32,000 bases of DNA, taken from contig NZ_CP088239.1 of NCBI RefSeq assembly GCF_021054785.1, forward strand, positions 600,001 to 632,000. Direction: 5' to 3'. Below are positions 7,424-32,000 of this stretch, piece by piece. The notes beneath the pieces were generated by a model that worked only from the letters and a program-made list of their open reading frames with translations, had not been told where the DNA came from and did not search any database. Each line of letters opens with the position of its first letter. Position 1 is the stretch's first letter. A program made the position numbers and the translations under genes. The DNA comes from Tannockella kyphosi (GTDB taxonomy: Bacteria; Bacillota_I; Bacilli_A; Erysipelotrichales; Coprobacillaceae).

Positions 7424-7542
7424 ATCTATACAATCAATAATGTGTAGTTACATACTTGTTTGAATTCATGATTCTATATGATACTTTTGTTTACTTGTCT
7501 CTATATTATGGTATGATTATGGGAGATAGTAGGAGGGATAAA

Positions 7543-11150: not shown

Positions 11151-11180
11151 AACCAGAATCTAAATTCTGGTTATTTTTTA
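11151..11180. terminator. Bidirectional terminator between convergent genes
   Basis: AACCAGAAT (11151-11159), loop CTAA, ATTCTGGTT (11164-11172). A-run upstream and T-run downstream. It overlaps the stop codon of the minus-strand regulator. Confidence 0.75.
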
Positions 11181-11851: not shown

Positions 11852-13310
11852 CACTGATCTCCTTGTGTGGAATACATATAAGTATTTCTAATCCACCGCC
11901 TAACATATTATTCGCAATAACATGTCCATTCATTCGTTCTACTTCCCCTTTAACAATCGCTAATCCTAATCCATTTCCACTTTTAGGATTATGTCTAGAA
12001 GGATCACTACGATAAAATACTTCAAATAAATGTTCTAGGTCTTTTGATTGAACACCATCACCATTATCTTTAAAAGATAAATAAGAGTATTTTCCTTCTT
12101 TTTCTAAGGATATTGTTAGAATAGGATTTCTATTTTTGTTATATTTTACACTATTTTCTAGTATGTTACTAAAGATGGATAGTAGTTGATCATTATCACC
12201 ATAAATGGATGTAGAAGCAATATGTCCTAATTGAATAGTTAATCCTTTTTCTAAGTATTCCATATAATATTTTTGCATATATTCTTTAATGAATCCATCC
12301 AACTGTATATAAATAGGGTTGATTGGTAACTCACCTAACTCTAATTTACTAATAGACATTATTTTAGTAATCATTTGATCGATATCTTCAGATTTGTTTT
12401 TAATGATTTGTAAGTATTTTTGTTGACTCTCTGGTGATTTAGCAATTCCATCTAACAATCCTTCGACATAGGCACGAATAGAGGTAAGTGGACTTCGTAA
12501 GTCGTGGGATATACCAACTAGGATTTCTTGCTTACTTTTTTCATGATACTCACTCCTATCTAAGGATGTTTTTAAACGTATTGCCATTTCATTAAAATTA
12601 TCAAAAACAGGTTTAAACTCATCTTGATAAGGGTATTCAATGCGATAAGATAAGTTTCCTGCTGTTATTTCACTAGTTCCTTTATATAATAATTCTAAAG
12701 GATCTTGAATACGGTTATAAACAAATTTTATTAAAAAATTATTGGTAACTTTAATCGAAATAAGCAGTGCTAATAAAATACTAACACTAATAATACTTAC
12801 ACCTATCTTCAATGTGTTATAAGAAAGATCACTACATGTTGCAAAAATAGCCACTGTATATACTTGATCATTTACAAAGCTTTTTGCCATATATAATTCT
12901 CGTGAATTATTAGAAACAAAACCAACACCACCTAATGATGTAATCGCACTTATTAAACTTTCATCTACTTCTAGTGAGGAACCATAACTATATGTAATTG
13001 TATCATTTGATGAAATAAGAATATAAAATTCATTATTATCTAATGTAACTAATGCTGTATTCGATAAAGAATCAATATATATATCCTCCTTATTTTGTAA
13101 TTGTTCATCTACTACTTCAAAAATATTTTGACTTGCCTTATAAAAAGTTTCACTATCAATAAAGTTTACACCAGTACCAAAACGAACATAAAAAAATGTA
13201 ACAGTGATACCTATTATGATAATAATAATAGAAATGAAAACAGGAATAGCAATTGCTAGTATATTCGAAATATATAATCTCTTTTTCATTGTTAAATCTA
13301 CTTTTTTCAT
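11844..13310 (-). CDS. Sensor histidine kinase (2 TM, ~120-aa extracytoplasmic loop, HAMP, HisKA, HATPase_c)
   Basis: H box GISHDLRSPLTSI, N box LENSVKYN, G1 DNGDG, G2 GNGLGL. The 3' end overlaps the regulator start (8 nt with ATG 11851, 11 nt with the tracked GTG 11854). ATG 13310 is preferred after SD GAGGTG. Confidence 0.92.
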   Translation of the reverse strand: MKKVDLTMKKRLYISNILAIAIPVFISIIIIIIGITVTFFYVRFGTGVNFIDSETFYKASQNIFEVVDEQLQNKEDIYIDSLSNTALVTLDNNEFYILISSNDTITYSYGSSLEVDESLISAITSLGGVGFVSNNSRELYMAKSFVNDQVYTVAIFATCSDLSYNTLKIGVSIISVSILLALLISIKVTNNFLIKFVYNRIQDPLELLYKGTSEITAGNLSYRIEYPYQDEFKPVFDNFNEMAIRLKTSLDRSEYHEKSKQEILVGISHDLRSPLTSIRAYVEGLLDGIAKSPESQQKYLQIIKNKSEDIDQMITKIMSISKLELGELPINPIYIQLDGFIKEYMQKYYMEYLEKGLTIQLGHIASTSIYGDNDQLLSIFSNILENSVKYNKNRNPILTISLEKEGKYSYLSFKDNGDGVQSKDLEHLFEVFYRSDPSRHNPKSGNGLGLAIVKGEVERMNGHVIANNMLGGGLEILICIPHKEISDE

Positions 13311-13354
13311 CAAATCACCTCAAAACAATCATAACATATTTTTACTTTCATTGC

Positions 13355-13382
13355 TTAAACTAGTTGTAAACAATTAGTTTAA
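13355..13382. promoter_or_regulatory. 28-bp imperfect palindrome in the divergent HK/ABC intergenic region; candidate operator
   Basis: TTAAACTAGTTGTA|AACAATTAGTTTAA with 12 of 14 positions complementary. A possible extended -10 (TGtTATAGT, 13423-13431) for the ABC gene lies downstream. Confidence 0.3.
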
Positions 13383-13463
13383 CTGCAGTTTATGTTTATT
13401 TGTTATTGTGTTTAAGTATACTTGTTATAGTAGGAAAGTATTTATAAAGGAAGGAAGGTATAT

Positions 13464-16157
13464 ATGTTACAAATTAAAAATGTAAAAAAGCAATATCAAA
13501 CAGGAGAATATATTCAAACAGCATTAGATGATGTATCATTAAACTTACGTGATAATGAATTTGTTGCTATTCTAGGACCTAGTGGTTCAGGAAAGACAAC
13601 ACTATTAAATATAGTAGGGGGATTAGATCGTTATGATGAAGGGGACTTAATTGTTAATGCTATTTCAACTAAGAAATATAAAGATAAAGATTGGGATTCT
13701 TATCGTAATCATTCCATTGGTTTTGTATTCCAAAGCTATAATCTAATTGGACATCAATCAGTTTTAACCAATGTTGAACTAGCGTTAACTATTTCTGGTG
13801 TTTCAAAAGCACAACGAAGAAAAAAAGCAATTGATGCTTTAACGAAAGTGGGACTAGAACAACACATTCATAAAAAACCAAATCAATTATCAGGGGGACA
13901 AATGCAACGTGTGGCTATTGCTAGAGCATTAGTTAATAATCCTGAAATTTTATTAGCAGATGAACCAACTGGTGCTTTAGATAGTGAAACAAGTGTTCAA
14001 ATTATGAATCTTTTAAAAGAAGTAGCAAAAGATCGTTTAGTTGTAATGGTTACTCATAATCCAGAACTTGCAGAAGAATATGCTACTAGAATTATTAAAT
14101 TAAAAGATGGTAAGATTATTGATGATAATGATCCTTTTGTACCTCATCATGAACAAGAAGTAGCGGAGTATCAAAACATGGGGAAAGCTTCAATGTCTTT
14201 TCTTACTTCTGTCTCACTTAGTTTTAATAATTTAAAGACAAAAAAAGGTCGTACTTTTTTAACTGCTTTTGCAGGATCAATAGGGATTATTGGAATAGCT
14301 TTGATTGTTTCTATTTCTAGTGGTGTTAATACGTATATAGAAGATATTCAAAAAGAAACAATGAGTTCTTATCCAGTAACTATTTCATCTCAAACAATTG
14401 ATTCTGATAGTATACTGGATACAAGACAATCTATGATTGATGATTTTATGGATGAATCATCAGAAGTGTTAGATGCTGTTTATGGAGATAATATGTATCT
14501 AGAAGCACAAGAATCTTTTAATACAAGTATTGTAGAAAATGATTTAACTAATTTTAAAGTTTATTTGGATGATCCTGATAGTGAGATTAATCAGTATGTA
14601 GGAGAAAACGGAGTTGTTTATACGTATGATGTTCAGTTTGATGTATATGCAACAGATAGTGAAGGAACTACTATTAATACAAATGATGATCCTCAAGAAG
14701 AAGAGGGAGTTAGTAGTAATGATGCTCAATTAGAGATGTTACAATCTTTATTAGGTACTTCTAGTTCAAGTGGTGCTGATAATTTTAGTGAATTAATGGC
14801 AAATTCATCAGGTGATGGAATTAGTAGTGTTATTAGTGATAGTTATGATTTATTAGCGGGAGATTGGGCTAGTGAATATAATGAAGTGGTTTTAGTATTA
14901 GGTAGTGATAATCAAATTTCAACTACTGTTTTATATCAATTAGGATTGATTACAAGAGATGAATATGATGCTATTTGTGATCAAATTAGTGATGGTGAAA
15001 CAGGAGATATTCTTAGTTTTGATTATGATGATTTATTAGGATATACATTTAGTTTAGTACCTTATTGTGATTATTATAGTCAAGAAGATAATGGAACATT
15101 TAGTTATTCTACAGAGGACATAGATTCTTTACTTGATAATTCTATTGAATTATCTGTTGTAGGTATTATTAAATCAACAGAGGATGCTGTTAATGATACT
15201 ATTGCTACAAATGTAGCATATACTAGTGCTTTAACTTCTTATATTATTGATTATACAGATGATAGTGCTGTTGTTTTAGCACAAGAAGAAGATGAATCAA
15301 TAAATATATTAACTGGTGTTTCATTTGAAGAAGAGGATGATGATGGAAAAGTAGCTACTACTATTGAATATTTATCAAATTTATCAATAAGTGAAAAAGC
15401 TTCTGTTTATTCTATGATGATGAGTAATCAAACTTCTCAATTTACTAGTGAAGAACAAATGGCTACTGCTTTAGATTATTGGTTAGCTTCATCACCAGAT
15501 CAAGAAGTATTATTAACTATTTATGATACTTATTTAGATCAAAATTCATATATTGATAACTTAAGTGCTTTTGGTAAAGTTAGTTATGATGCACCTTCTT
15601 CAATTAGTATTTATACAGATAGTTTTGAAGATAAAGATGCTATTTCATTAGCAATTGAAAATTATAATGAAACAGTGGATGAGGATGCACAAATAACATA
15701 TACAGATTATGTAGCTTTATTAACATCTTCATTAACATCTATTATTGATGTAATAAGTTATGTATTAATTGCTTTTGTTTCTGTTTCATTAATTGTTTCA
15801 TGTGTGATGATTGGTATTATTACTCATATTTCTGTATTAGAAAGAACAAAAGAAATAGGTATTTTACGTGCTATTGGTGCTTCAAAACGTAATATTTCTC
15901 AAGTATTTAATGCAGAGACACTAATTATTGGTTTATTTGCAGGAACAATTGGTATTGTAGTGACATTGTTATTAATAATTCCAATTAATTCTATTTTACA
16001 TTTCTTGACAGCAAATGAAAGTATTAATGCAGTGTTGCCAATTAATGTTGGAATCATCTTAATTATGATAAGTGTGGTAATTACAGTATTAGCCGGTTTA
16101 TTACCTGCTAAATCTGCTGCTAAAAAAGATCCAGTAATTGCCCTTCGAAGTGAATAA
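13464..16157 (+). CDS. Fused ABC transporter ATPase + MacB/FtsX-type permease with a ~470-aa acidic extracytoplasmic domain
   Basis: N-terminal motifs: Walker A GPSGSGKTT, Q-loop, signature LSGGQ, Walker B LLADEPT, H-loop VTHN (MacB/LolD-like). TM1 lies at ~aa 265-286. A D/E/S/T-rich region spans ~aa 287-758. Three C-terminal TMs follow, with the FtsX hallmark ERTKEIGILRAIGA. Confidence 0.9.
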   Translation: MLQIKNVKKQYQTGEYIQTALDDVSLNLRDNEFVAILGPSGSGKTTLLNIVGGLDRYDEGDLIVNAISTKKYKDKDWDSYRNHSIGFVFQSYNLIGHQSVLTNVELALTISGVSKAQRRKKAIDALTKVGLEQHIHKKPNQLSGGQMQRVAIARALVNNPEILLADEPTGALDSETSVQIMNLLKEVAKDRLVVMVTHNPELAEEYATRIIKLKDGKIIDDNDPFVPHHEQEVAEYQNMGKASMSFLTSVSLSFNNLKTKKGRTFLTAFAGSIGIIGIALIVSISSGVNTYIEDIQKETMSSYPVTISSQTIDSDSILDTRQSMIDDFMDESSEVLDAVYGDNMYLEAQESFNTSIVENDLTNFKVYLDDPDSEINQYVGENGVVYTYDVQFDVYATDSEGTTINTNDDPQEEEGVSSNDAQLEMLQSLLGTSSSSGADNFSELMANSSGDGISSVISDSYDLLAGDWASEYNEVVLVLGSDNQISTTVLYQLGLITRDEYDAICDQISDGETGDILSFDYDDLLGYTFSLVPYCDYYSQEDNGTFSYSTEDIDSLLDNSIELSVVGIIKSTEDAVNDTIATNVAYTSALTSYIIDYTDDSAVVLAQEEDESINILTGVSFEEEDDDGKVATTIEYLSNLSISEKASVYSMMMSNQTSQFTSEEQMATALDYWLASSPDQEVLLTIYDTYLDQNSYIDNLSAFGKVSYDAPSSISIYTDSFEDKDAISLAIENYNETVDEDAQITYTDYVALLTSSLTSIIDVISYVLIAFVSVSLIVSCVMIGIITHISVLERTKEIGILRAIGASKRNISQVFNAETLIIGLFAGTIGIVVTLLLIIPINSILHFLTANESINAVLPINVGIILIMISVVITVLAGLLPAKSAAKKDPVIALRSE

Positions 16158-17784: not shown

Positions 17785-19584
17785 ATGAAAGATAATAAAA
17801 AATTATTTCAAATATATACAATTGTTTGGATTGTATTCTTTCTTGTACTAGTTGCTACCTTATTTAGAATGTATGGGGATGAACATATTATTAATTATAC
17901 TGGTATTGTGAGAGGGTGTACTCAAAAAGTTATTTTAGGTGAAACACAAGGTATTGAGGATGATGAGCTAATAGCTTATGTAGATCAAGTTATTTATGAT
18001 TTACAATCAGCTGAGGAATATAGTTCTTTTGATCTTCAGGATACTTATTATCAAGAACAACTTATTTATATTGATGATTTATGGTGTCAGATAAAAGAAG
18101 AGATTGAAGTTATTCGTTTAGAAGGAAGTTCTAATGATATTTATACGATTAGTCTTTTGCATTATGAAATATCTGATGATTTAGCTCATTATGTGGAAGA
18201 TACTTCAGCTAAAGAATTAAGTGAGTTTTTTTATTTGTTTGGAATATCTTTTGGGTTTGCGATTGTTTTATTAATTTCTTTGTTTTATCATAATCGTAAT
18301 AATTTGAATAAAATAGCAATGAAGGATAGTTTAACAAATATTTATAGTAGAGATGGATTTTCAAAACAATCGAAACATCTACTACAAAATTCATCAAAAG
18401 AACAATATGTTGTACTAGCTATCGATATTGTTGATTTTAAAATATATAATCATCGTTTAGGTCATAGTTTTGGAGATGAGATACTTTGTTTGATAGCTAG
18501 TTGTCTAGAAGAATTTGTAGGTCAAAATGGAATATGTTCCAGAATTAATGGTGATAACTTTAAGGTTTTTATTATAAAAAGAGATCATATGATAGAGGAT
18601 ATTAATACATATATAGTAGAAAAAATGCGTGAAAAAGGATTTTTGATGCTTGCCAAGGATATTCATTTTATATATAGTGCTTATGAGATTATTGATAATA
18701 CAGAAGAAATAGAAGAAATATTAGGAAAAGTAAATTTAGCTCATTCTTATGCAAAAATAATGAATGCGAGAGAAGTAGTTTGGTATGATAGTTCTTTTAT
18801 TAATCAAGTGCAACAAGAAGATGATTATACTTCTCGATTTAATGAAGCTATTGTAAATAAAGAATTTAAAATCTATTTACAACCTCAACTAAATCTAGAA
18901 ACAATGCAAATTAATGCAGCAGAAGCATTAGTTAGATGGGAAGTAGAAGAGGGAAAGATTATTTTTCCTGATTCATTTATTCCTTTGTATGAAGGGAAAG
19001 GACTTATTCCTTTATTAGATTATTATATTTTAGAAGAAGTTTGTAGTTATCTTCAAGAGATTATGCTAGAACATCAAACATTTAGTATTGCGATTAACTT
19101 TTCTAGACTAACGTTAAGTACGGATCATTTTGTTACTTCTTTTTTAGAAATAGTAGAAAAGTATGGAATAGATGCATCTTGTATTGAAATAGAAATCACA
19201 GAAACATCATTAAATGAATTAAGTAATGAAGTCATTGAACAATTAGAAATACTTTCTAACAAAGGTTTCAAAATTGCAATGGATGATTTTGGGGCAGGAT
19301 TCTCTAATTTGTGTTCTTTAACAGATATACCACTTAATATCCTTAAATTAGATAAACAATTTTTATGGAAAATGGATAGTTCAGGAAGTGTATCGGAAAT
19401 TATAGAGAGTGTTGTTAAAATGGCACATAATTTAGATTTAAAAGTAATATGTGAGGGTGTTGAAACAAAAAAACACTTATCATATTTAAGAACAGTTGGA
19501 TGTGATATAGCTCAAGGATATTTTATTAGTAGGGCAATACCAACAAAAGAATTTACAGAAAAATATCTTAGCACTAAAAAATAG
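17785..19584 (+). CDS. Membrane-anchored GGDEF(degenerate)-EAL protein, probable c-di-GMP phosphodiesterase
   Basis: Two TMs flank a ~120-aa outside loop. GGDEF-domain blocks DSLTNIYSRDGF and DIVDFKIYNHRLGHSFGD are present, but the signature reads NGDNF (nt 18547-18561). EAL-domain residues are intact: EALVRW (18922-18930), NFS, EITE, DDFGAGFS, KLDK, EGVET, QGYF. Confidence 0.9.
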   Translation: MKDNKKLFQIYTIVWIVFFLVLVATLFRMYGDEHIINYTGIVRGCTQKVILGETQGIEDDELIAYVDQVIYDLQSAEEYSSFDLQDTYYQEQLIYIDDLWCQIKEEIEVIRLEGSSNDIYTISLLHYEISDDLAHYVEDTSAKELSEFFYLFGISFGFAIVLLISLFYHNRNNLNKIAMKDSLTNIYSRDGFSKQSKHLLQNSSKEQYVVLAIDIVDFKIYNHRLGHSFGDEILCLIASCLEEFVGQNGICSRINGDNFKVFIIKRDHMIEDINTYIVEKMREKGFLMLAKDIHFIYSAYEIIDNTEEIEEILGKVNLAHSYAKIMNAREVVWYDSSFINQVQQEDDYTSRFNEAIVNKEFKIYLQPQLNLETMQINAAEALVRWEVEEGKIIFPDSFIPLYEGKGLIPLLDYYILEEVCSYLQEIMLEHQTFSIAINFSRLTLSTDHFVTSFLEIVEKYGIDASCIEIEITETSLNELSNEVIEQLEILSNKGFKIAMDDFGAGFSNLCSLTDIPLNILKLDKQFLWKMDSSGSVSEIIESVVKMAHNLDLKVICEGVETKKHLSYLRTVGCDIAQGYFISRAIPTKEFTEKYLSTKK

Positions 19585-21546: not shown

Positions 21547-23466
21547 ATGGGCAAACGTAAAATAATATTAATAATTAATGGGGTCTTATTTTTAGGACTA
21601 GTTATTTTTACATATGGAACTATTTTAACACTATTAAATGATGATTCGATTTCTATTAGTGATAAAAATGAAATTGCTTATATTGACTTTTCAACGGAAG
21701 TAGTTGAATTGCAAAGCGATATTTTTGAATGGTATCCTAGTGTATTATACACAAGTGAAGATTTTGAATATGATGTAATTGCAATCGCAGATGATGATGC
21801 ATTATATGGAACATATCGAGTCACTTTGGATTTAGAAGAAGGCGAAACATATATGATAGCTGGACAAAGTGCTGACTATGCTCAAAATGTATGGATTAAC
21901 GGAGAACTTTTGTCACAGGTAGGTGTTGTTAGTGATAATGTTGATGACTTTGTAGCTGAGAAAACAGAGTATTCTATTACATTTGTTGCAGGTGAGGAAG
22001 AAGTTGAGATTATTATTCAAAGTGCTTATTTTAACCATGTTAATGGCGCAGTAGAGTCATTGTACCTAGGGGATCCAGATTTAGTGGTGGATTTAACAGT
22101 AACTTATTATATGCATGAAACTTATATTTTAGGAGCTTTAGCTTCGATAGGATTATTTTTTATAGGAATGTATGCTTTCTATTATAAGGATGTTAGTTTA
22201 TTATTCTTTGGTCTTGCTTGTTTTGCTGTATCATTAAAAACAGCATTGTATGGAAATTCGATTATGTTAATATCACCATCATTAAATTGGTATCTTGGAC
22301 ATCGGTTAGAGTGGATTTCGGTATTTGCTTATTTTTTCTGTTTATTTATGTACTTAGATGCAGTATTTCATTGGATGATTAATAAAATAGCAATGATAAT
22401 AGGTTTATCTATATTAGTGGGATTATCTATGTTCTATATGGTTACTCCTTCTTATATATATTCTAGTTATTTAAGTGAAATGGTAGTAGTATTAACATTA
22501 ACTATTTTATTTTTACTTGCAAATGGAGTTTATACATTTATAAAATATGATGGTCTTAAAACAAAAACTCAATTTTTAACTCTACTTTCTGTTATTCTTT
22601 TATCTTTGGCAGCCGGATTAGAACGTTTATTATATCCAAATATAGTTATTAATATTTTAGCACCTACAACCTTAGTAGTAATCTTTATTAATGCAATCAT
22701 TTTTACTTTTAGTTTTACTAACACAGATAAGCAATTATTTATTGCCTCTCAAAAAGAGGCAGAGATTAATAGTAGAAATAATATGTTAGAGAACTTGAAT
22801 TTACTAAAAAATGACTATATGAATACAATAGCTCATGAATTAAAAACTCCTCTAGCGGTTATTACTGGATACTCTCAATTAACGCAATTGCAAATCAATG
22901 AAAATAAAATTAATGAGGAAACAATAGCAAATTTAAAAACAATATCCAATGAAGCAATGCGTTTGTCAAACTTGGTTTCTAAATTATTAACAGTAACATT
23001 AGATGCACATTCTTCAACAGAAAAAACAAAACAAAACTTATATCAATTAATAGAAGAAATGTCCACTATTTTAAAGCCTATTTTAGTTAAAAAAGGGAAT
23101 ATTATTATTAATGATATTGAAGCTGATATTAATGTTAGAATTAATTATGAAATGATTTTACAAGTTTATATCAATTTGGCAGTAAATGCGAATCGACATT
23201 CTAAATCAAGTGTTATTACTTTTAGTAATGATTCAGTAATTGATAATAGGGTATTAGTTCGTGTGGTTGATACGGGAACAGGAATTAGCGAAGAAATTCT
23301 ACCACATATCTTTGAAAAAGGATTTAGTCATGATGGTAGCAGTGGTCTAGGTTTAGCAATTTGTCGTGATATTGTAGAAATGCATAAAGGCGAATTACAG
23401 GTAGAAAAGACAGGTCCATTAGGTACAAGTTTTGCTTTTACATTACCGATATATATTGATGAGTAG
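21547..23466 (+). CDS. Sensor histidine kinase with 7TM-receptor (7TMR-DISM-like) input module
   Basis: An N-terminal anchor and a ~165-aa extracytoplasmic domain precede seven consecutive hydrophobic helices (aa ~195-400). Then come H box IAHELKTPLAVITGY, N box NLAVNANRH, G1 DTGTG and G2 GSSGLGL. Confidence 0.88.
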   Translation: MGKRKIILIINGVLFLGLVIFTYGTILTLLNDDSISISDKNEIAYIDFSTEVVELQSDIFEWYPSVLYTSEDFEYDVIAIADDDALYGTYRVTLDLEEGETYMIAGQSADYAQNVWINGELLSQVGVVSDNVDDFVAEKTEYSITFVAGEEEVEIIIQSAYFNHVNGAVESLYLGDPDLVVDLTVTYYMHETYILGALASIGLFFIGMYAFYYKDVSLLFFGLACFAVSLKTALYGNSIMLISPSLNWYLGHRLEWISVFAYFFCLFMYLDAVFHWMINKIAMIIGLSILVGLSMFYMVTPSYIYSSYLSEMVVVLTLTILFLLANGVYTFIKYDGLKTKTQFLTLLSVILLSLAAGLERLLYPNIVINILAPTTLVVIFINAIIFTFSFTNTDKQLFIASQKEAEINSRNNMLENLNLLKNDYMNTIAHELKTPLAVITGYSQLTQLQINENKINEETIANLKTISNEAMRLSNLVSKLLTVTLDAHSSTEKTKQNLYQLIEEMSTILKPILVKKGNIIINDIEADINVRINYEMILQVYINLAVNANRHSKSSVITFSNDSVIDNRVLVRVVDTGTGISEEILPHIFEKGFSHDGSSGLGLAICRDIVEMHKGELQVEKTGPLGTSFAFTLPIYIDE

Positions 23467-23538: not shown

Positions 23539-24207
23539 ATGGCTAAAATATTATTAGTAGAAGATAACTTAGATATTATGAATTTTAATACTTCTTTATT
23601 AACTATGAAAGGATACGAAGTTCTGTGTGCGACTACTCTCAAGAAATGTGGAGAGTTATTATCTTTTCATCAAGTTGACTTAATTGTCTTAGACATTATG
23701 TTGCCAGATGGAAATGGTTTAGATTATTGTAAGGTGATTAAAGAAAAAACAAATACACCAATATTAATGTTAAGTGCATTGGGAGAAAATAAAGATGTTA
23801 TTGCTGGATTGAAAGCAGGGGGAGATGATTATTTAGCAAAGCCCTATGATTTTGAAATATTTCTAGCAAGAATAGAAGCAAGATTAAGATCTGTAGAAAC
23901 TCAAAATCGCTTTATTTATTTTGGAAACCTAAAGTTAGATACAGAATCGATGACTGCTAATTTAGAAGGTGAAGATTTATATCTTACTAAAAAAGAATTT
24001 TCTGTTTTATTAGTATTAGCCAAGAATCCTAATTCTATTGTAGATAAAGAGAAACTTTATGAATCGGTATGGGGTGTTCCAATGTCAGGAGATAGTAGTG
24101 CTTTATGGACTGTTATTTCGAGATTAAAGAAAAAACTAAATGCAGAATTATCTGGTGTCACTATCTCTTTACAACGTTCAGAAGGCTATATTTTAGAAAA
24201 ATTTTAA
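23539..24207 (+). CDS. OmpR/PhoB-family response regulator
   Basis: Receiver features: ILLVEDN, LIVLDIMLPDGNG, MLSA, KPY. The winged-helix C-terminus reads LYLTKKEFSVLLVL...ISRLKKKL...GYIL. Confidence 0.92.
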   Translation: MAKILLVEDNLDIMNFNTSLLTMKGYEVLCATTLKKCGELLSFHQVDLIVLDIMLPDGNGLDYCKVIKEKTNTPILMLSALGENKDVIAGLKAGGDDYLAKPYDFEIFLARIEARLRSVETQNRFIYFGNLKLDTESMTANLEGEDLYLTKKEFSVLLVLAKNPNSIVDKEKLYESVWGVPMSGDSSALWTVISRLKKKLNAELSGVTISLQRSEGYILEKF

Positions 24208-24213
24208 TATATG

Positions 24214-24248
24214 AAACCAAACTTACAAATTTGCAAGTTTGGTTTTTT
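24214..24248 (+). terminator. Strong rho-independent terminator separating the two-component genes from the sipW operon
   Basis: AAACCAAACTT (24214-24224) pairs perfectly with AAGTTTGGTTT (24235-24245), followed by T-run 24243-24248. Confidence 0.85.
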
Positions 24249-24332: not shown

Positions 24333-24869
24333 TTGCATTATATAAAGCGAATTTATAACTGCATATCATCTATTATGTTAGTTTGTTTACTCTTACTTCT
24401 ATTTTTATTAATAGGAGTGAGGTTGTTTGGTTATTACCCTTATGTTGTATTATCTGGCAGCATGGAGCCGTTATATCAAACAGGATCTATGGTCTATGTA
24501 GAAGAAGTAACAGCAGAAGAAATTGAAGTAGGAGATGTTATTACTTTCTATATGATAGATAACGCAACTATAGTAACTCATCAAGTAATAGAAATAGATG
24601 AAATAAATGGATATTATTATACTCAAGGCTTAGCCAATGAAACAGCAGATGGATTACCAACAACAATAGAAAGTATTATTGGTAAATCAAGCTTTTCTAT
24701 CCCATATCTTGGGTTTATCGTAGCATATTTAACAACACCACCATGGAGCTACATCTTAATAGGATTAGTGTTGATGTGGATGATAGGTGTTCATATGATT
24801 GATCTTTGGGAGAAAGATAAAAAAGAAAACATGAATCAACTAAATAGAAAAGATTTAAAAGTGTATTAA
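24333..24869 (+). CDS. sipW: Signal peptidase I, SipW (ER/archaeal, S26B) type
   Basis: N-terminal TM; Ser box VLSGSMEP (24453-24470); His box VTHQV (24576-24587); C-terminal TM anchor WSYILIGLVLMWMIGV. TTG 24333 lies 8 nt after the SD AAGGGAGG, whereas the tracked GTG 24324 overlaps the SD. Confidence 0.85.
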   Translation: MHYIKRIYNCISSIMLVCLLLLLFLLIGVRLFGYYPYVVLSGSMEPLYQTGSMVYVEEVTAEEIEVGDVITFYMIDNATIVTHQVIEIDEINGYYYTQGLANETADGLPTTIESIIGKSSFSIPYLGFIVAYLTTPPWSYILIGLVLMWMIGVHMIDLWEKDKKENMNQLNRKDLKVY

Positions 24870-24911
24870 GAAATAATAGGGAATGGTTCCGACAAGAAAG
24901 AGGAGAAAAAA

Positions 24912-25709
24912 ATGAGAAAATATGCAAAACCAATTACAGCGTTATGTTTAGTGGTGTTATTAACGATAGGAGCTACAATAGCTTACTTAACAGATCAAAC
25001 AGATGAAATTACAAATAGCTTTACAGTAGGAGAAAATGTAGATATTGAATTAGTAGAAACAGATAATGATTATAGTTTAATACCAGGTGAAACTTTCACA
25101 AAAGACCCAACAATCTCAGTTACAGGGGATGATGCATATATCTTTGTAGAAGTAATTGAAACACTGCCAACTGCAGCATTAAATAATGATGAATTCTCAT
25201 TTGCTGATTATGTAACTTATGAAATTAATGGTTCATTTTTAGTAGATCCGTTAGTTGAAGGGGGTTCATTCTATGCTGGAGGATATACAGCTGATGCTAT
25301 AACAACAAATTGGTATTGGAGTTTAGTTAAAACTTCTGCTTCAACTGTAAGTTATTACGAAGGAGAAGCGGGTGATACTTATACAACAATTACTTATGTA
25401 TATGCTTTAGTAGATGGAGATGGATATTTACTTTCAGTTTCAAGTTTAGATCAGATGACTAATCTAGACGAATTAACAAACACTACTGATTTGTATGTTG
25501 CAGCTGAGTTTCCAATTTTATTAGATGATGAAGTAACTATCAATGATAAATTAACGCAAGCAATGCTTAATTTACTGCTAAATAATAATACAACTGAAGA
25601 TAATACGGACACTCATACAGTAGACTTATCATTTATAGGATATGCTATTCAAAGTGATAACATTCTAAATACGGAAAATTTAGAAATAGTATTTAGTTAT
25701 ATAAAATAA
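24912..25709 (+). CDS. TasA/camelysin-like exported protein with SipW-cognate signal peptide (paralog 1)
   Basis: The N-terminus MRKYAKPITALCLVVLLTIGATIAYLTDQTDEITNSFTVGENVDIELVE matches the h-region plus A-Y-x-T-D...N-x-F pattern of TasA/CalY-class SipW substrates. It also shows LIPGETFTKDPTISV and DDAYIFVEV blocks. It lies immediately after sipW. Confidence 0.75.
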   Translation: MRKYAKPITALCLVVLLTIGATIAYLTDQTDEITNSFTVGENVDIELVETDNDYSLIPGETFTKDPTISVTGDDAYIFVEVIETLPTAALNNDEFSFADYVTYEINGSFLVDPLVEGGSFYAGGYTADAITTNWYWSLVKTSASTVSYYEGEAGDTYTTITYVYALVDGDGYLLSVSSLDQMTNLDELTNTTDLYVAAEFPILLDDEVTINDKLTQAMLNLLLNNNTTEDNTDTHTVDLSFIGYAIQSDNILNTENLEIVFSYIK

Positions 25710-25742
25710 AACATTGAAAATATAGAAGAAAGGAGTGGCAAA

Positions 25743-26342
25743 ATGCGAAAGAAAAGAATATACGCTAGTTTCATTTGTCTAATGATATTAGCAGGCACAA
25801 TCGGTTATCAAACAGTTGCATATTTTGTAAATGAAAGTACGACAACAAATGTTATAACCACTGGTAATGTACAAATGGAGTTATATGAAGAGATAAAAAC
25901 AGATGGGATAAATTGGACATTAGTTTCTACAGATGAAAGTATTTCAATATTACCAGGTGATACAGTAGAACAAATTGCTTATATCACTAATACAGGATCT
26001 GAGGATTTTTACACAAGAGTATCAATCAAATTTTATATTGAAGATGTAAATGGCGAGTCGTTAGATTCTAGTGTAGTTAGTTTGAATATCGATGATGAAA
26101 AATGGGTAGAAGATGAAGATGGTTGGTATCGATATGTAAATATTGTGAGATCTGGAGAAACAACAGAGGATCCAGTGTTCAGTGAAATCTCTTTCTCTTC
26201 AGAAATGGATAATGATTATATTGGATCTACTATTACTTTAGTAGTAGGATCTCAGTCAGTGCAATCTGAATATAATGAATTTGAATCAATATTAGAAGTG
26301 CAGGGATTCCCTGAAGTTACAGGAAATGAGGTGAAGAAATAA
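25743..26342 (+). CDS. TasA/camelysin-like exported protein with SipW-cognate signal peptide (paralog 2)
   Basis: The N-terminus is ...LMILAGTIGYQTVAYFVNESTTTNVITTGNVQMELYE, followed by ILPGDTVEQIAYITNTGSEDFYTRVSI. Size is 199 aa. Its stop overlaps the next ATG (TAATG). Confidence 0.75.
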   Translation: MRKKRIYASFICLMILAGTIGYQTVAYFVNESTTTNVITTGNVQMELYEEIKTDGINWTLVSTDESISILPGDTVEQIAYITNTGSEDFYTRVSIKFYIEDVNGESLDSSVVSLNIDDEKWVEDEDGWYRYVNIVRSGETTEDPVFSEISFSSEMDNDYIGSTITLVVGSQSVQSEYNEFESILEVQGFPEVTGNEVKK

Positions 26343-29300
26343 TGAAAAAGAAAATAGCATCAATAATATTATCTCTTATATTAGCAATAACAAGTATCTT
26401 TAGTGCACCAATGCTAATGAATGTTCTTGCAGATGATCAAACGACAGGAGGAGATGCAACAGAAAACAATGAAGGAATTTCTGTTAGTAAGACAGTTACT
26501 TTTTCTTATGATACTGATGATAATGGATTAGCAAGTGAAGATTCTTATGAATATACCTTGAATTTAGATGTTTTTACAACAGGAGAAGTATCAATAACGG
26601 AAGATGAGACAGCTCCAGTTGATATTATTCTAGTTCTAGATCAATCTACAAGTATGATGTGGCCTGCTGATCAAGCAGAAAACTTAACTTATGGTGATAT
26701 TAATATATCACAAGATAGTACTGAGAATCTAAAAAATAATGTAGGTATTATTGATGGAGAATACAAACTTATAACTGATGTTGGTTCAGGAGAGTCAAGT
26801 TATGAATGGGTTCAAGATACATCAATCACAGTTTCTCCTATTGAAGAATCAGCTAGTGTGACTTATGGAGATTGGGTTAGTGAAACAGATACTGTAACGA
26901 TTGAGTCATTATTAAATTCATCTAATAATGAATGGACTAGTTTTTATAAAGCAAACTATGGTTATCTTTATAGCGAAAGTCGTCAAAAAGACCTTGTTGA
27001 GGCTGTTTTGGATTTCATTTTATCATTAGAAACTGATGTTGAGCATCGTATCTCTATCGTGACATATCACAACGATGATACTACTGAATATAGTTTAAGT
27101 GGTTTAGTTGATACAGATGGGGATAATACGCTTGATGTAATAGAAGAGGTACTATCTTGGGTTACTGAGACAAATACATCTTCTGGAAACACATATGAAG
27201 GTGGAAATGCTGATGGTACGACTACCTTTAATTTACAACATAGTACATTAATTGCATTAGGTATAGAAACAGCAGAAGATATCTTATATGATGCTAAATA
27301 CGACGGAACAACAACAAACTTAGAAGAGCTTTATGAAGGTACTGGTAGAACACAACTTTCAGTAATCTTTACAGATGGGATACCAACTCAAATTAATTCC
27401 ACAGGTGATGGATCAGATGATTCATCCGCTAGTACATTAAACAATGTTAATCGTGCATTAGCAGCATCTGCTAGCATGAAACAAGATGGTGTTACTGTAT
27501 TTACCATTGGTATGCTAGATGGAGTATATAGTGATTATACGAATGATGCGAATACTAATAGTACTTCATCATACTACAATGATGGCTATACAACATCTAA
27601 TGGACGAACTACCTATTATATTAATGATGGAAATACGTTTATTAGTTCTTTCTTAGATTTATTATCTAGTAATTATGTAAATGCTAGTACTTATATTTCT
27701 AGTAGTTTCCCTAATTCGTCTGGTATTTATGATGTTGGAACTGCTACAAGTTACACTATTTCTACTACTTATGCTAAAGAAATAGCATCCTATAATGATG
27801 ATGGAACTGTAAAAAGTTATACAGAATATTACTATCCGATTGATACTAATAGTAATGACGTAATCGTATCAGATAGTTTGGCAAGTGTATTTACTAAAGT
27901 TGCTGGCTCATTAACAACATCTGCAACTTATGAACTAGATCAAACAACACAAGTTCGTGATGTTATGACTTCAGAATTTATAATACCAGAAAATTCAACT
28001 ATTAGCTTATATATAGCTTACTGTGAAGGGAAAAATAGTGAGGAGGATAAGGATTATAGCAGTAGTTTATTTGATAGTGGTTACTATACATGGAGTGAAC
28101 GTGTATTAATTTATGACCAAGATGGAAACACAAATGAAATCAATGAAAATCTATCAGTAACTACACAAACGGTGTATGTTAATGATCAAGATGATTCTAT
28201 TGTTTATTACGCTGATGAAGTTAGTACTGATAGCAATGGCACTTATATTATGATAGACGGATTAAGAGTAGACTTATATGAAACACAATTAGTAACAGTA
28301 CAAGGGTTTGACTTTAACAAATATTATGTAACTACTGTTGATAAAGATAATGATGAAGCAAATGGTGAAGATTTTGGTGCAAAACTAATTATTGAATTTG
28401 ATATTGATCCAGTTAGTTCTACTGTGGGTGATAATATTACTAGTGATGGTACATTGGGTGGTAATGCAATTGATACCAATACTTCTGCATCAGGAGTTTA
28501 TATTTATGATTCTTCACATGCAACTTCTGATAGTAGTGGGTATTATTCCTTAGAATCATTTCCTGTACCTAATGCAGATATTCCTATAGATGTAACTGTA
28601 GAAACTACAGATCAAACTATTTATTTAGGTAATGCAATTTCTATCGTAGATTTAGTAGAAATTGATGGAGAATCAATAGATGGAAATAGTAATAAATATG
28701 TTGATATTACTTATGTTTTATATCAAACACAAGAATCAAATAAAGATGAATATGACAAATATACTACGGGTGAAAGTAGCGTTTATGTAGCTTATGATGA
28801 AGAGAAAGATGAATATTACAAATACGCTTTAGATAGTGATAGCAATAGAATTGAACTTTATAGGGTATATATTCCAGCAGGTCAATCAGCAAGTTCAGCA
28901 GATGGTGATAGCTATAATGTAGATACATTAATAACTCCTAGTGATGATACTGATTATCTTGTAGAAATTACTATTTCTCCTCTAACAGAAGGTACAGTTG
29001 GGACAACAACAGTAGAATCTCAATTACTTCGTGTTTATGTATTACATCCTACAATTGAAGTAAATAACATTTGGGTAGATTATGCAACTCCTGTAGATTT
29101 AAGACAAGATAACATTCTATCAGTAGTAGATCCTGATGATATGTCGACGTATGATACATTAGTAACTGATAATATCGCATGGGAAACAACAAATAGTTAT
29201 TCATATGATATTCCTGAATCAACAATAGAAGCACCAACGGTAAACTTCGGTTATACGGCAAGGCGTGGTATCGAATATACAGCGGACGAATTCTTTGAAA

Positions 29301-30979
29301 TAGGAGTTCGTGAAGATAAAGAGTTCTATATTTCTTCGATGACTATTAAATCTTCCGACGGATATTCTAATACTACAAGGTATGAATATTCTCAAGAAGA
29401 AGTAACATCATTTGGAGTATATATTAATAAATATGATTTAGAAATTAGTAAAACAGTAAATGCAGATGATTATGATACATATTCTCAATCATTTATCTTT
29501 GATTTAAGTTATACAGATGCTGAATTTATAACATCTCAAAAATACTATCAAGATGATAATGGTTTAACAGTATTTGAAAGTTCAGACAATGACACAGTGG
29601 ATTTATACATCGATACTACTGGATACTATAGTGGGGAAACAGAATTTGCTATTTACACAAATATTAATCCTCAAGATGATAGTGTATTAGATTCAACATA
29701 CACGGAGTATTATAATATTACGCATCAATTCTTTAGTGAAACGGGTGTTCAAAATACATCAGGAAATTATATTAATGAATCAAATTTCACTATTTCTTAT
29801 AATGGGGCAACATATGAAGCTCGTGTTTTATGGGAAGATGAAGAAAACGAAATACCTTTATACGAAGCAACAGTAATAGATTATGAAAAAACATTAGAGG
29901 TAATTATAGATCCAGATATGTCTAATGTAGAAACCGTAGAATGGACTGATTCTACCGGAACACGTTATTATACTTTTAATGTATTAGTAACTGATTTATA
30001 TTGTGGTGTAGAGCTAGACATTGTTGAAGATACTAATTGGTCTTGGCGTTATGAACCAGGGTTTACAACAACTACTACAACTCAATACGCTGATTATGTA
30101 AGTGGTGATGAAGCAACAGACTTAGACTATGTTACACAAAACATTTATGAATTTGATATAACTGATGGAAAAGTAAGTATTAGTGTTTATACTACTGAAG
30201 TTGACGAAACGGAAGTGACTTATGTTATTGCAAATGTAATAACGGAAGTAGACAACAGTTATCAAGTTCGTACTGTAACTTATGGAAATGTTCAAGCAGA
30301 TATAAGTGATTATTTGGAGGGATTTAATGCTGGAAACTTTGTAAGTATTGATAATTTCATAACTGAAATGTCTGAACAAGGAGTTTATCCAGTGTTTGAT
30401 ACAACATCGGTTATGAGTGAAGATTCTAGTGGAAACATTACACAAACAACTACAACTGAAACATCTGCTTATAAAATTATTGATTATGATGAAGAAATAG
30501 TAGCAAGAATTGAAGGGGATAAAGTAGGAGATAATGATGGTATTCTTGAATTAGGAGAAGGATTATTGGGAACTTACCAAAATACTGATTTTGAAAAAGA
30601 TAATTATATAAATTATGAATATGCATATTACTTAACACAATATACATTTGATTCTATTGCAACAGTAACAACTGCTAAAGATGGATCATCAGCTATGATT
30701 TTAGTTACTAATAGTACTGATTATTTAGATAAAAACGAAAGTGATGATTATTCTGATTGGACAAGAATTGATACTGAGCAATATACATATGAAGATAACA
30801 ATGGAAACTTTGATTTAGATTCAAGTAATACAACAACTATGTATGCACCTGTATCAGCAGTATACTTTGACATTAATGAAGTAGATATTGATGTATATAA
30901 TACATTAATGAATGAATATTGGTTATCATATAGCGAATTAGCTCAAAACACATTTTATGAATTAAGTGATCCAAGATAA
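26342..30979 (+). CDS. Very large (1545 aa) secreted acidic protein with N-terminal von Willebrand factor A domain; adhesin-like
   Basis: Sec-type signal peptide (predicted cleavage after VLA, aa 30). MIDAS DxSxS is present as DIILVLDQSTSM (D100 = nt 26639), with later SVIFTDGIPT and VTVFTIGM vWA strands. The rest is D/T/Y/S/N-rich with only 2 Cys. There is no LPXTG and no C-terminal hydrophobic segment. Confidence 0.85.
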   Translation: MKKKIASIILSLILAITSIFSAPMLMNVLADDQTTGGDATENNEGISVSKTVTFSYDTDDNGLASEDSYEYTLNLDVFTTGEVSITEDETAPVDIILVLDQSTSMMWPADQAENLTYGDINISQDSTENLKNNVGIIDGEYKLITDVGSGESSYEWVQDTSITVSPIEESASVTYGDWVSETDTVTIESLLNSSNNEWTSFYKANYGYLYSESRQKDLVEAVLDFILSLETDVEHRISIVTYHNDDTTEYSLSGLVDTDGDNTLDVIEEVLSWVTETNTSSGNTYEGGNADGTTTFNLQHSTLIALGIETAEDILYDAKYDGTTTNLEELYEGTGRTQLSVIFTDGIPTQINSTGDGSDDSSASTLNNVNRALAASASMKQDGVTVFTIGMLDGVYSDYTNDANTNSTSSYYNDGYTTSNGRTTYYINDGNTFISSFLDLLSSNYVNASTYISSSFPNSSGIYDVGTATSYTISTTYAKEIASYNDDGTVKSYTEYYYPIDTNSNDVIVSDSLASVFTKVAGSLTTSATYELDQTTQVRDVMTSEFIIPENSTISLYIAYCEGKNSEEDKDYSSSLFDSGYYTWSERVLIYDQDGNTNEINENLSVTTQTVYVNDQDDSIVYYADEVSTDSNGTYIMIDGLRVDLYETQLVTVQGFDFNKYYVTTVDKDNDEANGEDFGAKLIIEFDIDPVSSTVGDNITSDGTLGGNAIDTNTSASGVYIYDSSHATSDSSGYYSLESFPVPNADIPIDVTVETTDQTIYLGNAISIVDLVEIDGESIDGNSNKYVDITYVLYQTQESNKDEYDKYTTGESSVYVAYDEEKDEYYKYALDSDSNRIELYRVYIPAGQSASSADGDSYNVDTLITPSDDTDYLVEITISPLTEGTVGTTTVESQLLRVYVLHPTIEVNNIWVDYATPVDLRQDNILSVVDPDDMSTYDTLVTDNIAWETTNSYSYDIPESTIEAPTVNFGYTARRGIEYTADEFFEIGVREDKEFYISSMTIKSSDGYSNTTRYEYSQEEVTSFGVYINKYDLEISKTVNADDYDTYSQSFIFDLSYTDAEFITSQKYYQDDNGLTVFESSDNDTVDLYIDTTGYYSGETEFAIYTNINPQDDSVLDSTYTEYYNITHQFFSETGVQNTSGNYINESNFTISYNGATYEARVLWEDEENEIPLYEATVIDYEKTLEVIIDPDMSNVETVEWTDSTGTRYYTFNVLVTDLYCGVELDIVEDTNWSWRYEPGFTTTTTTQYADYVSGDEATDLDYVTQNIYEFDITDGKVSISVYTTEVDETEVTYVIANVITEVDNSYQVRTVTYGNVQADISDYLEGFNAGNFVSIDNFITEMSEQGVYPVFDTTSVMSEDSSGNITQTTTTETSAYKIIDYDEEIVARIEGDKVGDNDGILELGEGLLGTYQNTDFEKDNYINYEYAYYLTQYTFDSIATVTTAKDGSSAMILVTNSTDYLDKNESDDYSDWTRIDTEQYTYEDNNGNFDLDSSNTTTMYAPVSAVYFDINEVDIDVYNTLMNEYWLSYSELAQNTFYELSDPR
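26615..27530 (+). other. vWA (MIDAS) domain region within the 1545-aa protein, apparently with a long insertion
   Basis: About 235 residues separate the DxSxS strand (26639-26653) from the TDG strand (~27370). That is longer than a minimal vWA fold and is reminiscent of arm insertions in Gram-positive pilus tip adhesins. Boundaries are approximate. Confidence 0.55.
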
Positions 30980-30993
30980 TAGGAGGGGATACA

Positions 30994-31779
30994 ATGAAAA
31001 CAACTAATAAAATAAGAATGAAAATAATAGAAAAATTCTTTCATAAAAACAAAAAAACAATGATGTCCCTTTGTTTAATAGTAATGTTCTTGGTGAGTGC
31101 TATTGGCCTAACTATTGCATATAAAATAGGAGTTAGTGATGAAATTGAAAACAACTTTGAAACACCAACAATTGTTACTCCTATTGAAGAAGAATTTGAT
31201 GGAGTTGTTAAAGAAAGTGTAACAGCAAGCAATTCATCAGATAGTGATGTGGATGTTTATGTAAGATTAAAATTTGTTGTAAATACAATGGAAGTTATCT
31301 ATGGAGATAATGGATATCCTATTCTAATAGATGAGCTAGGAAATGAATATAGTACGACTATAAATGAAGATGGGGAAGTTGTAGTATCTGATGAAAATTA
31401 TGACTCAACAACAGCGAGTACTTTGACTTATAAAACAGGTGCTCTTGTAGCAACTACTAGTTCATTTGATGAAAATGGTTATCTTGCTAATCATGCTACA
31501 ACTATTACAAATGTATTTGATGTAGAAGGCTTAAATGATACTGATTGGATTAGTGATGGAGATGGTGTATATTATTACAAATATTCTTTAGCTCCAGGAG
31601 AAACTGCGAATACATTAGTTGAAAAAATTTATCAAGAAGTATTTTATGATGGAGTAGTAGTAACTTTGACAATTATTGTGGATAGTGTTCAAGTAGATGG
31701 TTTAGAAGATTCATGGCAAGATGTAAGTTTGACGACTGATAGTGATGATAATCCAGTTGTTTATTTAGATAAAGAGTAG
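30994..31779 (+). CDS. TasA/camelysin-like exported protein with variant SipW-type signal peptide (paralog 3)
   Basis: A long basic n-region precedes the h-region SLCLIVMFLVSAIGLTIAYKIGVSDEIENNFETPTIVTPIEEEFDG and DVDVYVRLKF. A strong SD AGGAGGGG is present. Confidence 0.65.
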   Translation: MKTTNKIRMKIIEKFFHKNKKTMMSLCLIVMFLVSAIGLTIAYKIGVSDEIENNFETPTIVTPIEEEFDGVVKESVTASNSSDSDVDVYVRLKFVVNTMEVIYGDNGYPILIDELGNEYSTTINEDGEVVVSDENYDSTTASTLTYKTGALVATTSSFDENGYLANHATTITNVFDVEGLNDTDWISDGDGVYYYKYSLAPGETANTLVEKIYQEVFYDGVVVTLTIIVDSVQVDGLEDSWQDVSLTTDSDDNPVVYLDKE

Positions 31780-31790
31780 GAGGAAGAAAA

Positions 31791-32000
31791 ATGAAGCATA
31801 AAAAGGTTTGTTTAAGTGTTATAGTAACTATGATATTACTAGTTATTACTTCTACCTCTTCCTTTGGTTTAACTTCAACACCAGAAGTAATATTTGATAC
31901 TAGTAGTGGAATGTTTAGTTATAACAATGCAAAAGTAAGCAGTAGCACAGGATGTCCTGATTTATTTACTGATATAAAAGGGGTAATACCTGGAGACAGT
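31791..32000 (+). CDS. 5' part of a further exported protein of the cluster (truncated by the window edge)
   Basis: SD AGGAGGA is followed by ATG 31791. My translation is MKHKKVCLSVIVTMILLVITSTSSFGLTSTPEVIFDTSSGMFSYNNAKVSSSTGCPDLFTDIKGVIPGDS. It has a signal peptide and a DLF...K..IPGD block resembling the TasA NLKPGD strand. Confidence 0.6.
   Translation, partial: MKHKKVCLSVIVTMILLVITSTSSFGLTSTPEVIFDTSSGMFSYNNAKVSSSTGCPDLFTDIKGVIPGDS

Follow-up and report, generated by a model that had tools for sequence, protein, structure and literature searches.

We analysed a 32 000-nt stretch of the genome of Tannockella kyphosi (Coprobacillaceae, Erysipelotrichales), a bacterium isolated from fish gut; the whole stretch is referred to below as the window. 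Its last part carries an operon of six genes, g1 to g6, and we consider it likely that this operon encodes a SipW-dependent fibre system of the bsa type known from Clostridium perfringens, and represents a canonical, though enlarged, version of the conserved cassette sipW-B-C-D-E-F. In this notation g1 is the sipW gene for a signal peptidase, and the letters B to F denote the families of g2 to g6: g2, g3 and g5 code for small exported subunits similar to TasA and BsaA, g4 for a giant vWA protein and g6 for a candidate wall-anchored base. The closest characterized relative, bsa, is already known; the cassette itself is widespread and barely studied.

The open reading frame map showed that the six genes are co-directional and tightly packed downstream of a terminator, with intergenic gaps of 42, 33, 14 and 11 nt and a 1-nt overlap of g3 and g4 in the TAATG at 26340-26344. 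The terminator (24214-24248) was missed by the consensus terminator scan because its stem is AT-rich; folding gave -13.5 kcal/mol with z = -3.45 for the hairpin and U-run at 24214-24245. A metagenomic contig (L001) identical to the window runs past its edge and supplies the whole of g6 (protein P0040) as well as a hairpin of -17.4 kcal/mol located 3′ of this gene. The operon therefore consists of six genes.

The reference point for the proposed function is the bsa locus of C. perfringens, with the composition srtB, sipW-bsaA-bsaB(-like)-bsaC-bsaR-bsaS (Obana et al. 2020, PMC7395162; Kivimaki et al. preprint, PMC11580942). Both BsaA and BsaB are TasA-like. By donor-strand exchange BsaA forms polymers resistant to sodium dodecyl sulphate; an intermolecular isopeptide bond, which joins N35 to K74 and requires E56, locks them, and the residues reported to be functional are V33, N35, F37, E56 and K74 (PMC11580942). 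BsaC is a 70-kDa vWA protein, and an LPXTG BsaB-like gene is present in most strains (PMC11580942). More generally, genes of the LPxTG, SpaA, signal-peptidase and sortase kinds are reported in the company of TasA/BsaA paralogs (PMC11580942).

We retrieved a bsa locus of the C. perfringens type (L095) by back-translating the published BsaC antibody peptide; the BsaA of this locus has V33, N35, F37, E56 and K74, as published. In direct comparison g3 matched this BsaA with a blastp E-value of 7e-17, and BsaA matched the profiles of families C (5e-46), B (3e-19) and E (1.5e-10). The SipW of L095 is 34% identical to g1 (blastp 1.4e-21). A 250-aa protein with a VPKTGD motif matched the family F profile (8e-33) and g6 itself (blastp 1.2e-10), the 210-aa protein that follows it matched the profiles of families C and E (2e-32 and 3e-21), and srtB matched a cassette-linked sortase (9e-35). 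These comparisons lead us to conclude that the window operon is homologous to the bsa system.

The two operons share SipW, a BsaA-type subunit (family C, g3), a secreted vWA protein and the Asn-Glu-Lys triad of the 'exchange-and-lock' mechanism. In common they also have a TasA-fold protein with a motif of the xPxTGD kind (ILETGD in g6), a transmembrane helix and a basic tail (family F, g6), a second C/E-like paralog adjoining the vWA gene, a two-component system beside the operon and a class B sortase nearby, the last, for the present cassette, in relatives. They differ in gene order (S-C-F-E-D in bsa versus S-B-C-D-E-F here, S standing for sipW), and bsa has no counterpart of family B (g2). 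The vWA protein has 618 aa in bsa and 1545 aa in g4, which is 2.5 times larger. The g3 of the window has Gln at the acceptor Lys, with full triads in g2 and g5. The regulatory genes bsaRS are of LytTR type and lie within the bsa operon, whereas the present ones are of OmpR type and lie upstream, behind a terminator. Finally, srtB is adjacent to bsa, while no sortase gene stands beside the operon here.

The N-termini of the small proteins g2 and g3 carry the SipW-type signal motifs IAYLTDQTDE and VAYFVNEST, and g5 has IAYKIGVSDE; (I/L)PG(D/E) strands are present as well. With 24.9 bits g2 passed the cutoff (19 bits) of the SipW-cognate signal peptide model TIGR04088, and in NCBI it is named SipW-dependent-type signal peptide-containing protein. 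The same model gave 9.7 bits for g3, under the cutoff, and no match for g5, which yet aligns at the A-Y-x motif. For g3 we obtained 34.2 bits (2.2e-8) with TIGR04090, the BsaA family model with a cutoff of 60 bits. Scores with PF12389 (Peptidase_M73, cutoff 22.5 bits) were 13.8 bits for g2 (E = 0.052) and 15.8 bits for g3 (E = 0.012), and g4, g5 and g6 had no Pfam or NCBIfam match at E ≤ 1. Among wider homologs Peptidase_M73 was matched by 8 of 60 proteins of the g5 type and 3 of 56 of the g6 type.

To relate the families to one another, we built one family alignment per gene from syntenic loci and compared the profiles with hhalign. Families B and C were linked at 96% (E = 2e-9), B and E at 96.5% (E = 8e-10, over 48 N-terminal columns only), C and E at 97.6% (E = 3e-12, over 150 columns) and C and F at 92.8% (E = 4e-7). 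These links, the blastp match of g3 to BsaA and the matches of the g6 structural model described below support the assignment of g2, g3, g5 and g6 to the TasA/BsaA superfamily.

Residues V33, N35, F37, E56 and K74 of BsaA align with I33, N35, F37, E49 and K64 of g2, and the triad positions of g5 are N53, E66 and K73. The donor-strand motif of g2 is ITNSF, and its triad, Asn35-Glu49-Lys64, is complete; in 100 family B homologs the Asn was retained in 99, the Glu in 96 and the Lys in 90. In g5 there are a long basic N-region, the SipW-type motif TIAYK, the donor Asn53, Glu66 and Lys73, with conservation in family E (67 homologs) of 67, 63 and 63, respectively. The donor Asn36 and Glu49 are kept in g3, with Gln77 (codon at 25971-25973) in place of the acceptor Lys. 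The 85 homologs of family C have the Asn in 82 cases, the Glu in 73 and, at the acceptor position, Lys in 70 and Gln in nine, the nine including g3 and its close relatives, the clade of the window. We regard g2 as a candidate for a shaft subunit that is locked covalently. If the BsaA mutants are taken as a guide, locked links should be formed by g2 and g5 in either role, donor or acceptor, and g3 should donate its strand but not be lockable as an acceptor; its Gln77 could mean a non-covalent junction or a different chemistry.

The peptidase g1 scored 103.2 bits (E = 1.2e-29) with TIGR02228 (sigpep_I_arch), above the curated cutoff of 51.85. Its translation contains the motifs SGSMEP and THQV, and it has N- and C-terminal transmembrane segments, with the C-terminal hydrophobic stretch YILIGLVLMWMIGVHMI. 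With 83.8 bits it stayed under the cutoff of 190 bits of the equivalog model for Bacillus SipW (NF046067); judged by its sequence, g1 is a SipW-like peptidase and not an ortholog of Bacillus SipW. The TTG start at 24333, which yields 178 aa, is backed by alignment with homologs starting MKVGKIIYN; the alternative would be a GTG at 24324. In the public annotation sipW is shorter (148 aa, 24423-24869) and starts within the first membrane helix.

A preliminary description of this DNA, made from the letters alone, had reported six tightly packed co-directional genes behind a strong terminator, a SipW-class peptidase and three TasA-like small proteins. All of this stands, with g6 added as a fourth member of the TasA-like group and, by the downstream extension that had been proposed, with the end of the operon located after g6.

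The complete g6 (241 aa) ends in ILETGD, a transmembrane helix and a Lys-rich tail, KKESKEKQK. The preliminary statement that no LPXTG substrate is visible was thus right inside the window, but only since the window cuts g6. Residues T208, G209 and D210 are invariant in the family alignment, where close homologs have LVQTGD, APQTGD, VPQTGD, SPETGD, TPDTGD or PPQTGD at the same columns. Nearly all of 60 family F homologs showed x[P/I]xTG[D/E/Q], a transmembrane helix and an Arg/Lys tail; the LPXTG-anchor model (TIGR01167) was matched by 37 of 56, and some have NCBI names as LPXTG or sortase-B sorting-domain proteins. Three family F proteins of ∼445 aa (in L048, L071 and L079) have no sorting signal and end in SLH domains. 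As this is another wall-attachment device on the same subunit, it supports an anchoring role of family F. The model NF053819 ('EF2685/EF0750 sortase-dependent surface protein') was matched by 33 of 56 family F proteins; we set it aside as an uninformative match to the signal-peptide and anchor regions, the match on g6 covering residues 1-26 only and EF0750 belonging to the enterococcal WxL loci.

The signal peptide of g6 is of the ordinary AxA type, and no N-terminal donor motif follows it. Because of this, and because of the putative sorting signal, we read g6 as a wall-anchored, acceptor-type base. Family F has neither the donor Asn nor a conserved catalytic Glu, and the position of the acceptor Lys is occupied by Gln or Glu (Gln in 50 of 62 proteins); by the same analogy with BsaA, g6 would accept only, probably non-covalently. 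The TasA-like jelly-roll fold was checked by structure prediction for g6. The AlphaFold2 (AF2) model of the full protein, made from a 31-sequence alignment, had a predicted local distance difference test (pLDDT) score of 76.6 and showed a beta-sandwich, a disordered acidic linker and a C-terminal helix (214-240). Foldseek ranked the archaeal bundling pilin AbpA first (7ueg_A, probability 1.0, E = 1.1e-3); TasA (5of1_B) had probability 0.99 and E = 0.014, and PapA and FimG were also among the best matches. The TM-scores were modest (0.30-0.38); the best PDB matches are all donor-strand fibre subunits. An exhaustive search with the family F profile returned 4239 cluster representatives, and for 651 the E-value was 1e-30 or lower.

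In ∼15 of 64 related loci the cassette is followed immediately by a sortase gene of the same orientation. Three of these cassette-linked sortases were tested against the class B model (TIGR03064): two were above the cutoff and one just below, with E-values down to 8.6e-54.

The vWA protein g4 is acidic, has an ordinary Sec signal peptide and carries no sorting signal. The vWA assignment of the preliminary description is sustained by the motif DQSTS of the metal-ion-dependent adhesion site (MIDAS) and by homologs, but not by g4 itself, which matched no VWA model at E ≤ 1 and has a ∼100-aa insertion after the MIDAS motif. We accept the assignment because PF00092 was matched by seven of nine g4 homologs (best 2.7e-9) and the MIDAS residues D100, S102, S104, T302 and D345 are invariant in the nine; NCBI, too, names g4 a vWA domain-containing protein of Tannockella kyphosi. 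The giant g4 is rare: nine relatives of it were found among 5.8 billion clusters, each within the same six-gene order. Family D proteins usually have 800-1200 aa and those of the Tannockella clade 1500-1675 aa, and for this reason we describe the clade as an enlarged version. Two vWA proteins (L030:6404-14071 and L070:3556-11303) are much larger than g4, with 2555 and 2582 aa; the family tolerates large stalk expansions. Some D homologs carry the pilin-type domains DUF5979 and SpaA.

Family D proteins end in a tail with the consensus YWLNGFSxVVKNIFG (W-L-x7-N-x-F), which reads EYWLSYSELAQNTF in g4 and is found also in BsaC, as KYFYDNKEKINDF. It lies 4-10 residues from the C-terminus, past the last immunoglobulin-like strand, and was present in 49 of 63 complete homologs versus 2.8% of internal 45-aa windows. 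The tail resembles a donor strand ([YW]-L-x8-N-x-F), and we advance the hypothesis that it docks the adhesin onto the fibre, perhaps with the always-adjacent g5; the adjacency of D and E is kept in rearranged loci and in the bsa locus L095. A donor-strand profile made from 251 strands gave insignificant scores over the 63 D proteins (at most 5.6 bits), its best match fell within the tail in only 10 of 59 proteins, and a helix of the vWA domain (YLTASD..LNNIF) scored as often. For the C-terminal 445 residues of g4 an AF2 model based on eight sequences had a mean pLDDT of 45 and was uninformative on whether the tail is free.

A genome scan with one genome per species yielded 159 relatives of the vWA protein, and the cassette counts are from the 80 loci kept. 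Profiles of all six families matched in 48 of them, and the exact order sipW-B(1-3 copies)-C(1-2)-D-E-F was found in 45, most of the loci without the full order being cut by contig ends. Among gut Clostridia and Erysipelotrichia, this gene order is thus present in 45 or more species-level genomes, with hosts including Oscillospiraceae, Lachnospiraceae, Erysipelotrichaceae, Ruminococcus, Gemmiger and [Clostridium] viride. Within the cassette, D, E and F form a strictly conserved module, and subunit F, the candidate anchor, is almost always present.

Several individual loci deserve mention. Three of them (L032, L034 and L023) are rearranged to D-E-sipW-B-B-(C)-sipW-C-F, with two sipW genes in L032 and L034; in all three the D protein has no tail motif. 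The metagenome-assembled genome GCA_044432645.1 ('Clostridia bacterium'; L010-L013) has at least four copies of the giant-vWA cassette on different contigs. In the closest metagenomic relative of the operon (L002) sipW (5616) is immediately preceded by a gene for a tyrosine recombinase (4430-5281), and the interval 5273-5547 contains inverted lox-like sites, ACCACATAA-CGTTTA-TTATGTGGT and ACCACATAA-TAAACG-TTATGTGGT, 227 nt apart; we see this gap as a candidate for an invertible promoter, by which the cassette would be phase-variable. Several further cassettes have recombinase genes upstream, and the window has none.

The mechanism we propose is as follows. SipW (g1) would cleave the special signal peptides of g2, g3 and g5 and so free an N-terminal donor strand, x-T-N-x-F, which would insert into the beta-sandwich of a neighbouring subunit by donor-strand exchange, as in TasA. 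Where Glu and Lys are present, the donor Asn would lock spontaneously to the acceptor Lys in an intermolecular isopeptide bond, as in BsaA. In this scheme g2 and g5 would act as donor and locked acceptor, and g3, with its Gln, as donor. The distribution of the triad among g2, g3, g5 and g6 suggests an ordered heteropolymer, in which the order itself is our inference. A sortase, probably of class B and encoded elsewhere in the genome, would fix g6 to peptidoglycan as the fibre base. The vWA adhesin g4 would be exported separately and associate with the fibre; its C-terminal tail and g5 may mediate the attachment. A donor-strand heteropolymer with a vWA adhesin, as the preliminary description had it, is still the most reasonable reading. 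What the analysis shows is the gene content, the homologies, the conservation of motifs and the g6 fold; polymerization, locking by isopeptide bonds, the order of subunits, wall anchoring and adhesin attachment are inferred from these.

Several observations weigh against a bsa-type fibre that is anchored and locked in this manner. The nearest homolog of BsaA, g3, has no acceptor Lys, and in BsaA the mutation K74A abolished oligomerization (PMC11580942). Profile searches placed g1 and, with the signal-peptide model, g2 above cutoffs, but no small protein reached the curated cutoff of Peptidase_M73 or TIGR04090. PDB sequence searches with profiles of all five families returned nothing meaningful; the link to TasA comes only through the homology with BsaA and one predicted fold. 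The similarity of g4 to BsaC is marginal (blastp 1e-3, hhalign 49%). On the side of the anchor, g6 itself does not reach TIGR01167, the second residue of its ILETGD is Leu and not the Pro of most homologs, and the junction between fibre and base may not be covalent, since g6 has Gln/Glu at the acceptor Lys and family F no conserved catalytic Glu. The 32-kb window and the 620 nt that follow it, in a genome of 2.26 Mb, contain no sortase gene, which agrees with the preliminary description as far as the window goes. Finally, C. perfringens supernatants contain BsaC as a free monomer of 70 kDa, and most of the BsaA polymer is released from the cells (PMC11580942, PMC7395162); the free BsaC argues against an obligatory covalent tip adhesin.

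The last observation also speaks for a different interpretation, in which the operon would make a biofilm matrix and not a pilus: the subunits would form released or loosely attached fibres, like those of BsaA and TasA, and g4 would be a free soluble vWA protein of the matrix or for adhesion, detached from the fibre. Mutants in bsaB and bsaC merely weaken the pellicle (PMC11580942, PMC7395162), and the insignificant donor-strand scores of the g4 tail fit this interpretation too. What it does not explain well is the near-universal anchor subunit F, with its sorting signal or SLH domains, the strict conservation of the D-E-F module together with a D-E adjacency that survives rearrangement, and the enrichment of the tail motif at the end of D proteins. 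Given these features, a matrix role seems to us rather unlikely, albeit one to be taken seriously.

At the other extreme, the cassette could define a distinct and widespread Gram-positive pilus, with an isopeptide-locked shaft of three paralogs, an acceptor-only base fixed by sortase B, and a giant vWA tip held, with no sortase involved, by its own conserved tail (W-L-x7-8-N-x-F) as a mimic of a donor strand, probably in the groove of family E. This full architecture is a speculative extension of a bsa-type fibre, and we find it doubtful as a whole.

The preliminary description had instead proposed a fully sortase-independent, previously undescribed fibre displaying the vWA adhesin. That g2, g3, g4 and g5 carry no sorting signal, that no sortase gene lies within the window or just downstream and that BsaA polymerizes without a sortase (PMC7395162) are in accord with the proposal. 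However, the putative sorting signal of g6 aligns with the xPxTG[D/E] of its homologs, many of which match the LPXTG-anchor model, and the sortase genes that follow related cassettes matched class B in the three cases tested. As for being undescribed, the homologous bsa locus, with srtB and an LPXTG BsaB-like gene, has been studied both genetically and biochemically (PMC7395162, PMC11580942), and the architecture is that of a widespread conserved cassette, not an oddity of one genome. The observations of the preliminary description were confirmed and its interpretation was partly supported, but a fibre that is both sortase-independent and new is quite improbable.

Two further interpretations have very little to recommend them. 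It is highly improbable that the small proteins are metalloproteases of the camelysin type (Peptidase_M73) or spore-associated proteins: the PF12389 matches of g2 and g3 are weak, several homologs do carry the family as a precomputed label, but this 'peptidase' label is likely to be a misidentification of CalY (PMC11580942), and the conservation of donor strand and triad argues for fibre subunits, as do TasA and AbpA, both donor-strand fibres and the latter the best fold match of g6. We give hardly any credence, either, to a sortase-polymerized pilus in which the peptidase homolog would act as a chaperone like SipA/LepA of the Streptococcus pyogenes FCT pili; the vWA protein, the sorting-signal protein and the nearby sortases of relatives do resemble pilus islands, and some F and D homologs contain Cna_B, SpaA or DUF5979, but of the five exported proteins g6 alone carries a putative sorting signal, the tested sortases match class B and not the pilin-polymerizing class C, the catalytic Ser and His expected of a working ER-type peptidase are intact in g1, and the subunits are TasA-like and not CnaA/CnaB pilins.

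A bsa-type fibre can also be set beside other known assemblies. The tapA-sipW-tasA system of Bacillus subtilis (PMC9674648, PMC10151520) likewise has a dedicated SipW, SipW-cognate signal peptides, a jelly-roll subunit polymerizing through its N-terminal donor strand and an accessory protein tying the fibre to the cell. Unlike that system, the present operon has no TapA homolog, and the tasA system in turn has no vWA or sorting-signal subunit; as TasA has no Asn-Glu-Lys triad, its fibres are non-covalent. With the sortase pili that carry vWA tips (RrgA, SpaC, GBS104) the operon would share the logic of an anchored base, a covalent shaft and a large MIDAS vWA adhesin. The differences are that the fold here is that of TasA and not CnaA/CnaB, that a putative sorting signal is found on the base (g6) only, that the bonds expected are Asn-Lys bonds in a strand-swapped interface and not sortase-made Thr-Lys bonds, and that there is no class C sortase at the locus. 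Archaeal AbpA pili (7UEG) and Sulfolobus threads are alike in donor-strand complementation, AbpA being the best fold match for g6, and inter-subunit isopeptide bonds are reported for the threads (PMC9715654). These archaeal fibres are homopolymers that lack a vWA partner, a sortase anchor and a set of several paralogous subunits.

Table 1. Coordinates of the operon genes and of the features adjoining them at the 5′ side (positions in the window)
Feature	Coordinates	Strand	Length	Description
g1 (sipW)	24333-24869	+		SipW-class (archaeal/ER-type) signal peptidase I
g2 (family B)	24912-25709	+	265 aa	TasA/BsaA-like subunit, SipW-cognate signal peptide
g3 (family C)	25743-26342	+	199 aa	BsaA-type subunit
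g4 (family D)	26342-30979	+	1545 aa	Acidic secreted vWA (MIDAS) protein
g5 (family E)	30994-31779	+	261 aa	TasA/BsaA-like subunit
g6 (family F)	31791-32000	+	First 70 of 241 codons inside window	TasA/AbpA-fold subunit
Intrinsic terminator	24214-24248	+		Perfect AT-rich hairpin and U-run; ends the upstream two-component genes, 5′ boundary of operon
Histidine kinase	21547-23466	+		Pfam HisKA/HATPase_c; just upstream of operon
OmpR-type response regulator	23539-24207	+		Pfam Response_reg/Trans_reg_C; just upstream of operon

The two-component system upstream of the operon (Table 1) is a possible regulator of it. We considered this system as a conserved partner of the cassette and rejected the idea, since related loci carry other neighbours, e.g. 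recombinases. A GGDEF-EAL protein, with a role in cyclic di-GMP turnover, is encoded 2 kb upstream of the two-component system (17785-19584), and a regulatory link to fibre production is possible.

The remainder of the window contains further regulatory and metabolic genes. An OmpR-type response regulator and a HAMP histidine kinase are encoded on the minus strand, divergent from an 897-aa fused ABC-ATPase/FtsX-permease gene (11171-16157), as parts of a Bce-like module for peptide sensing and detoxification. At 7456-9437 a LytTR response regulator gene is followed by an overlapping 403-aa open reading frame with no Pfam match, possibly an Agr-type sensor kinase. Genes for the EIIA, EIIB and EIIC components of a phosphotransferase system, and then a PRD/Mga-type regulator with EIIA and EIIB domains of its own, occupy 1853-5760, and a pyruvate kinase gene is located at 156-1604.

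What is known of TasA-type fibres comes for the most part from the biofilm matrix of Bacillus and C. perfringens; in the present cassette the building block is joined with a candidate wall anchor and a large adhesin. If the bsa-type system is built as we propose, donor-strand exchange would be joined to sortase anchoring, two principles usually treated apart. More than the single locus of T. kyphosi, it is the cassette that deserves attention, as a candidate for an adhesive fibre anchored to the cells of gut Bacillota. Should the module indeed build such a fibre, anchored and locked covalently, gut commensals would possess in it a major organelle of adhesion that has so far escaped study.

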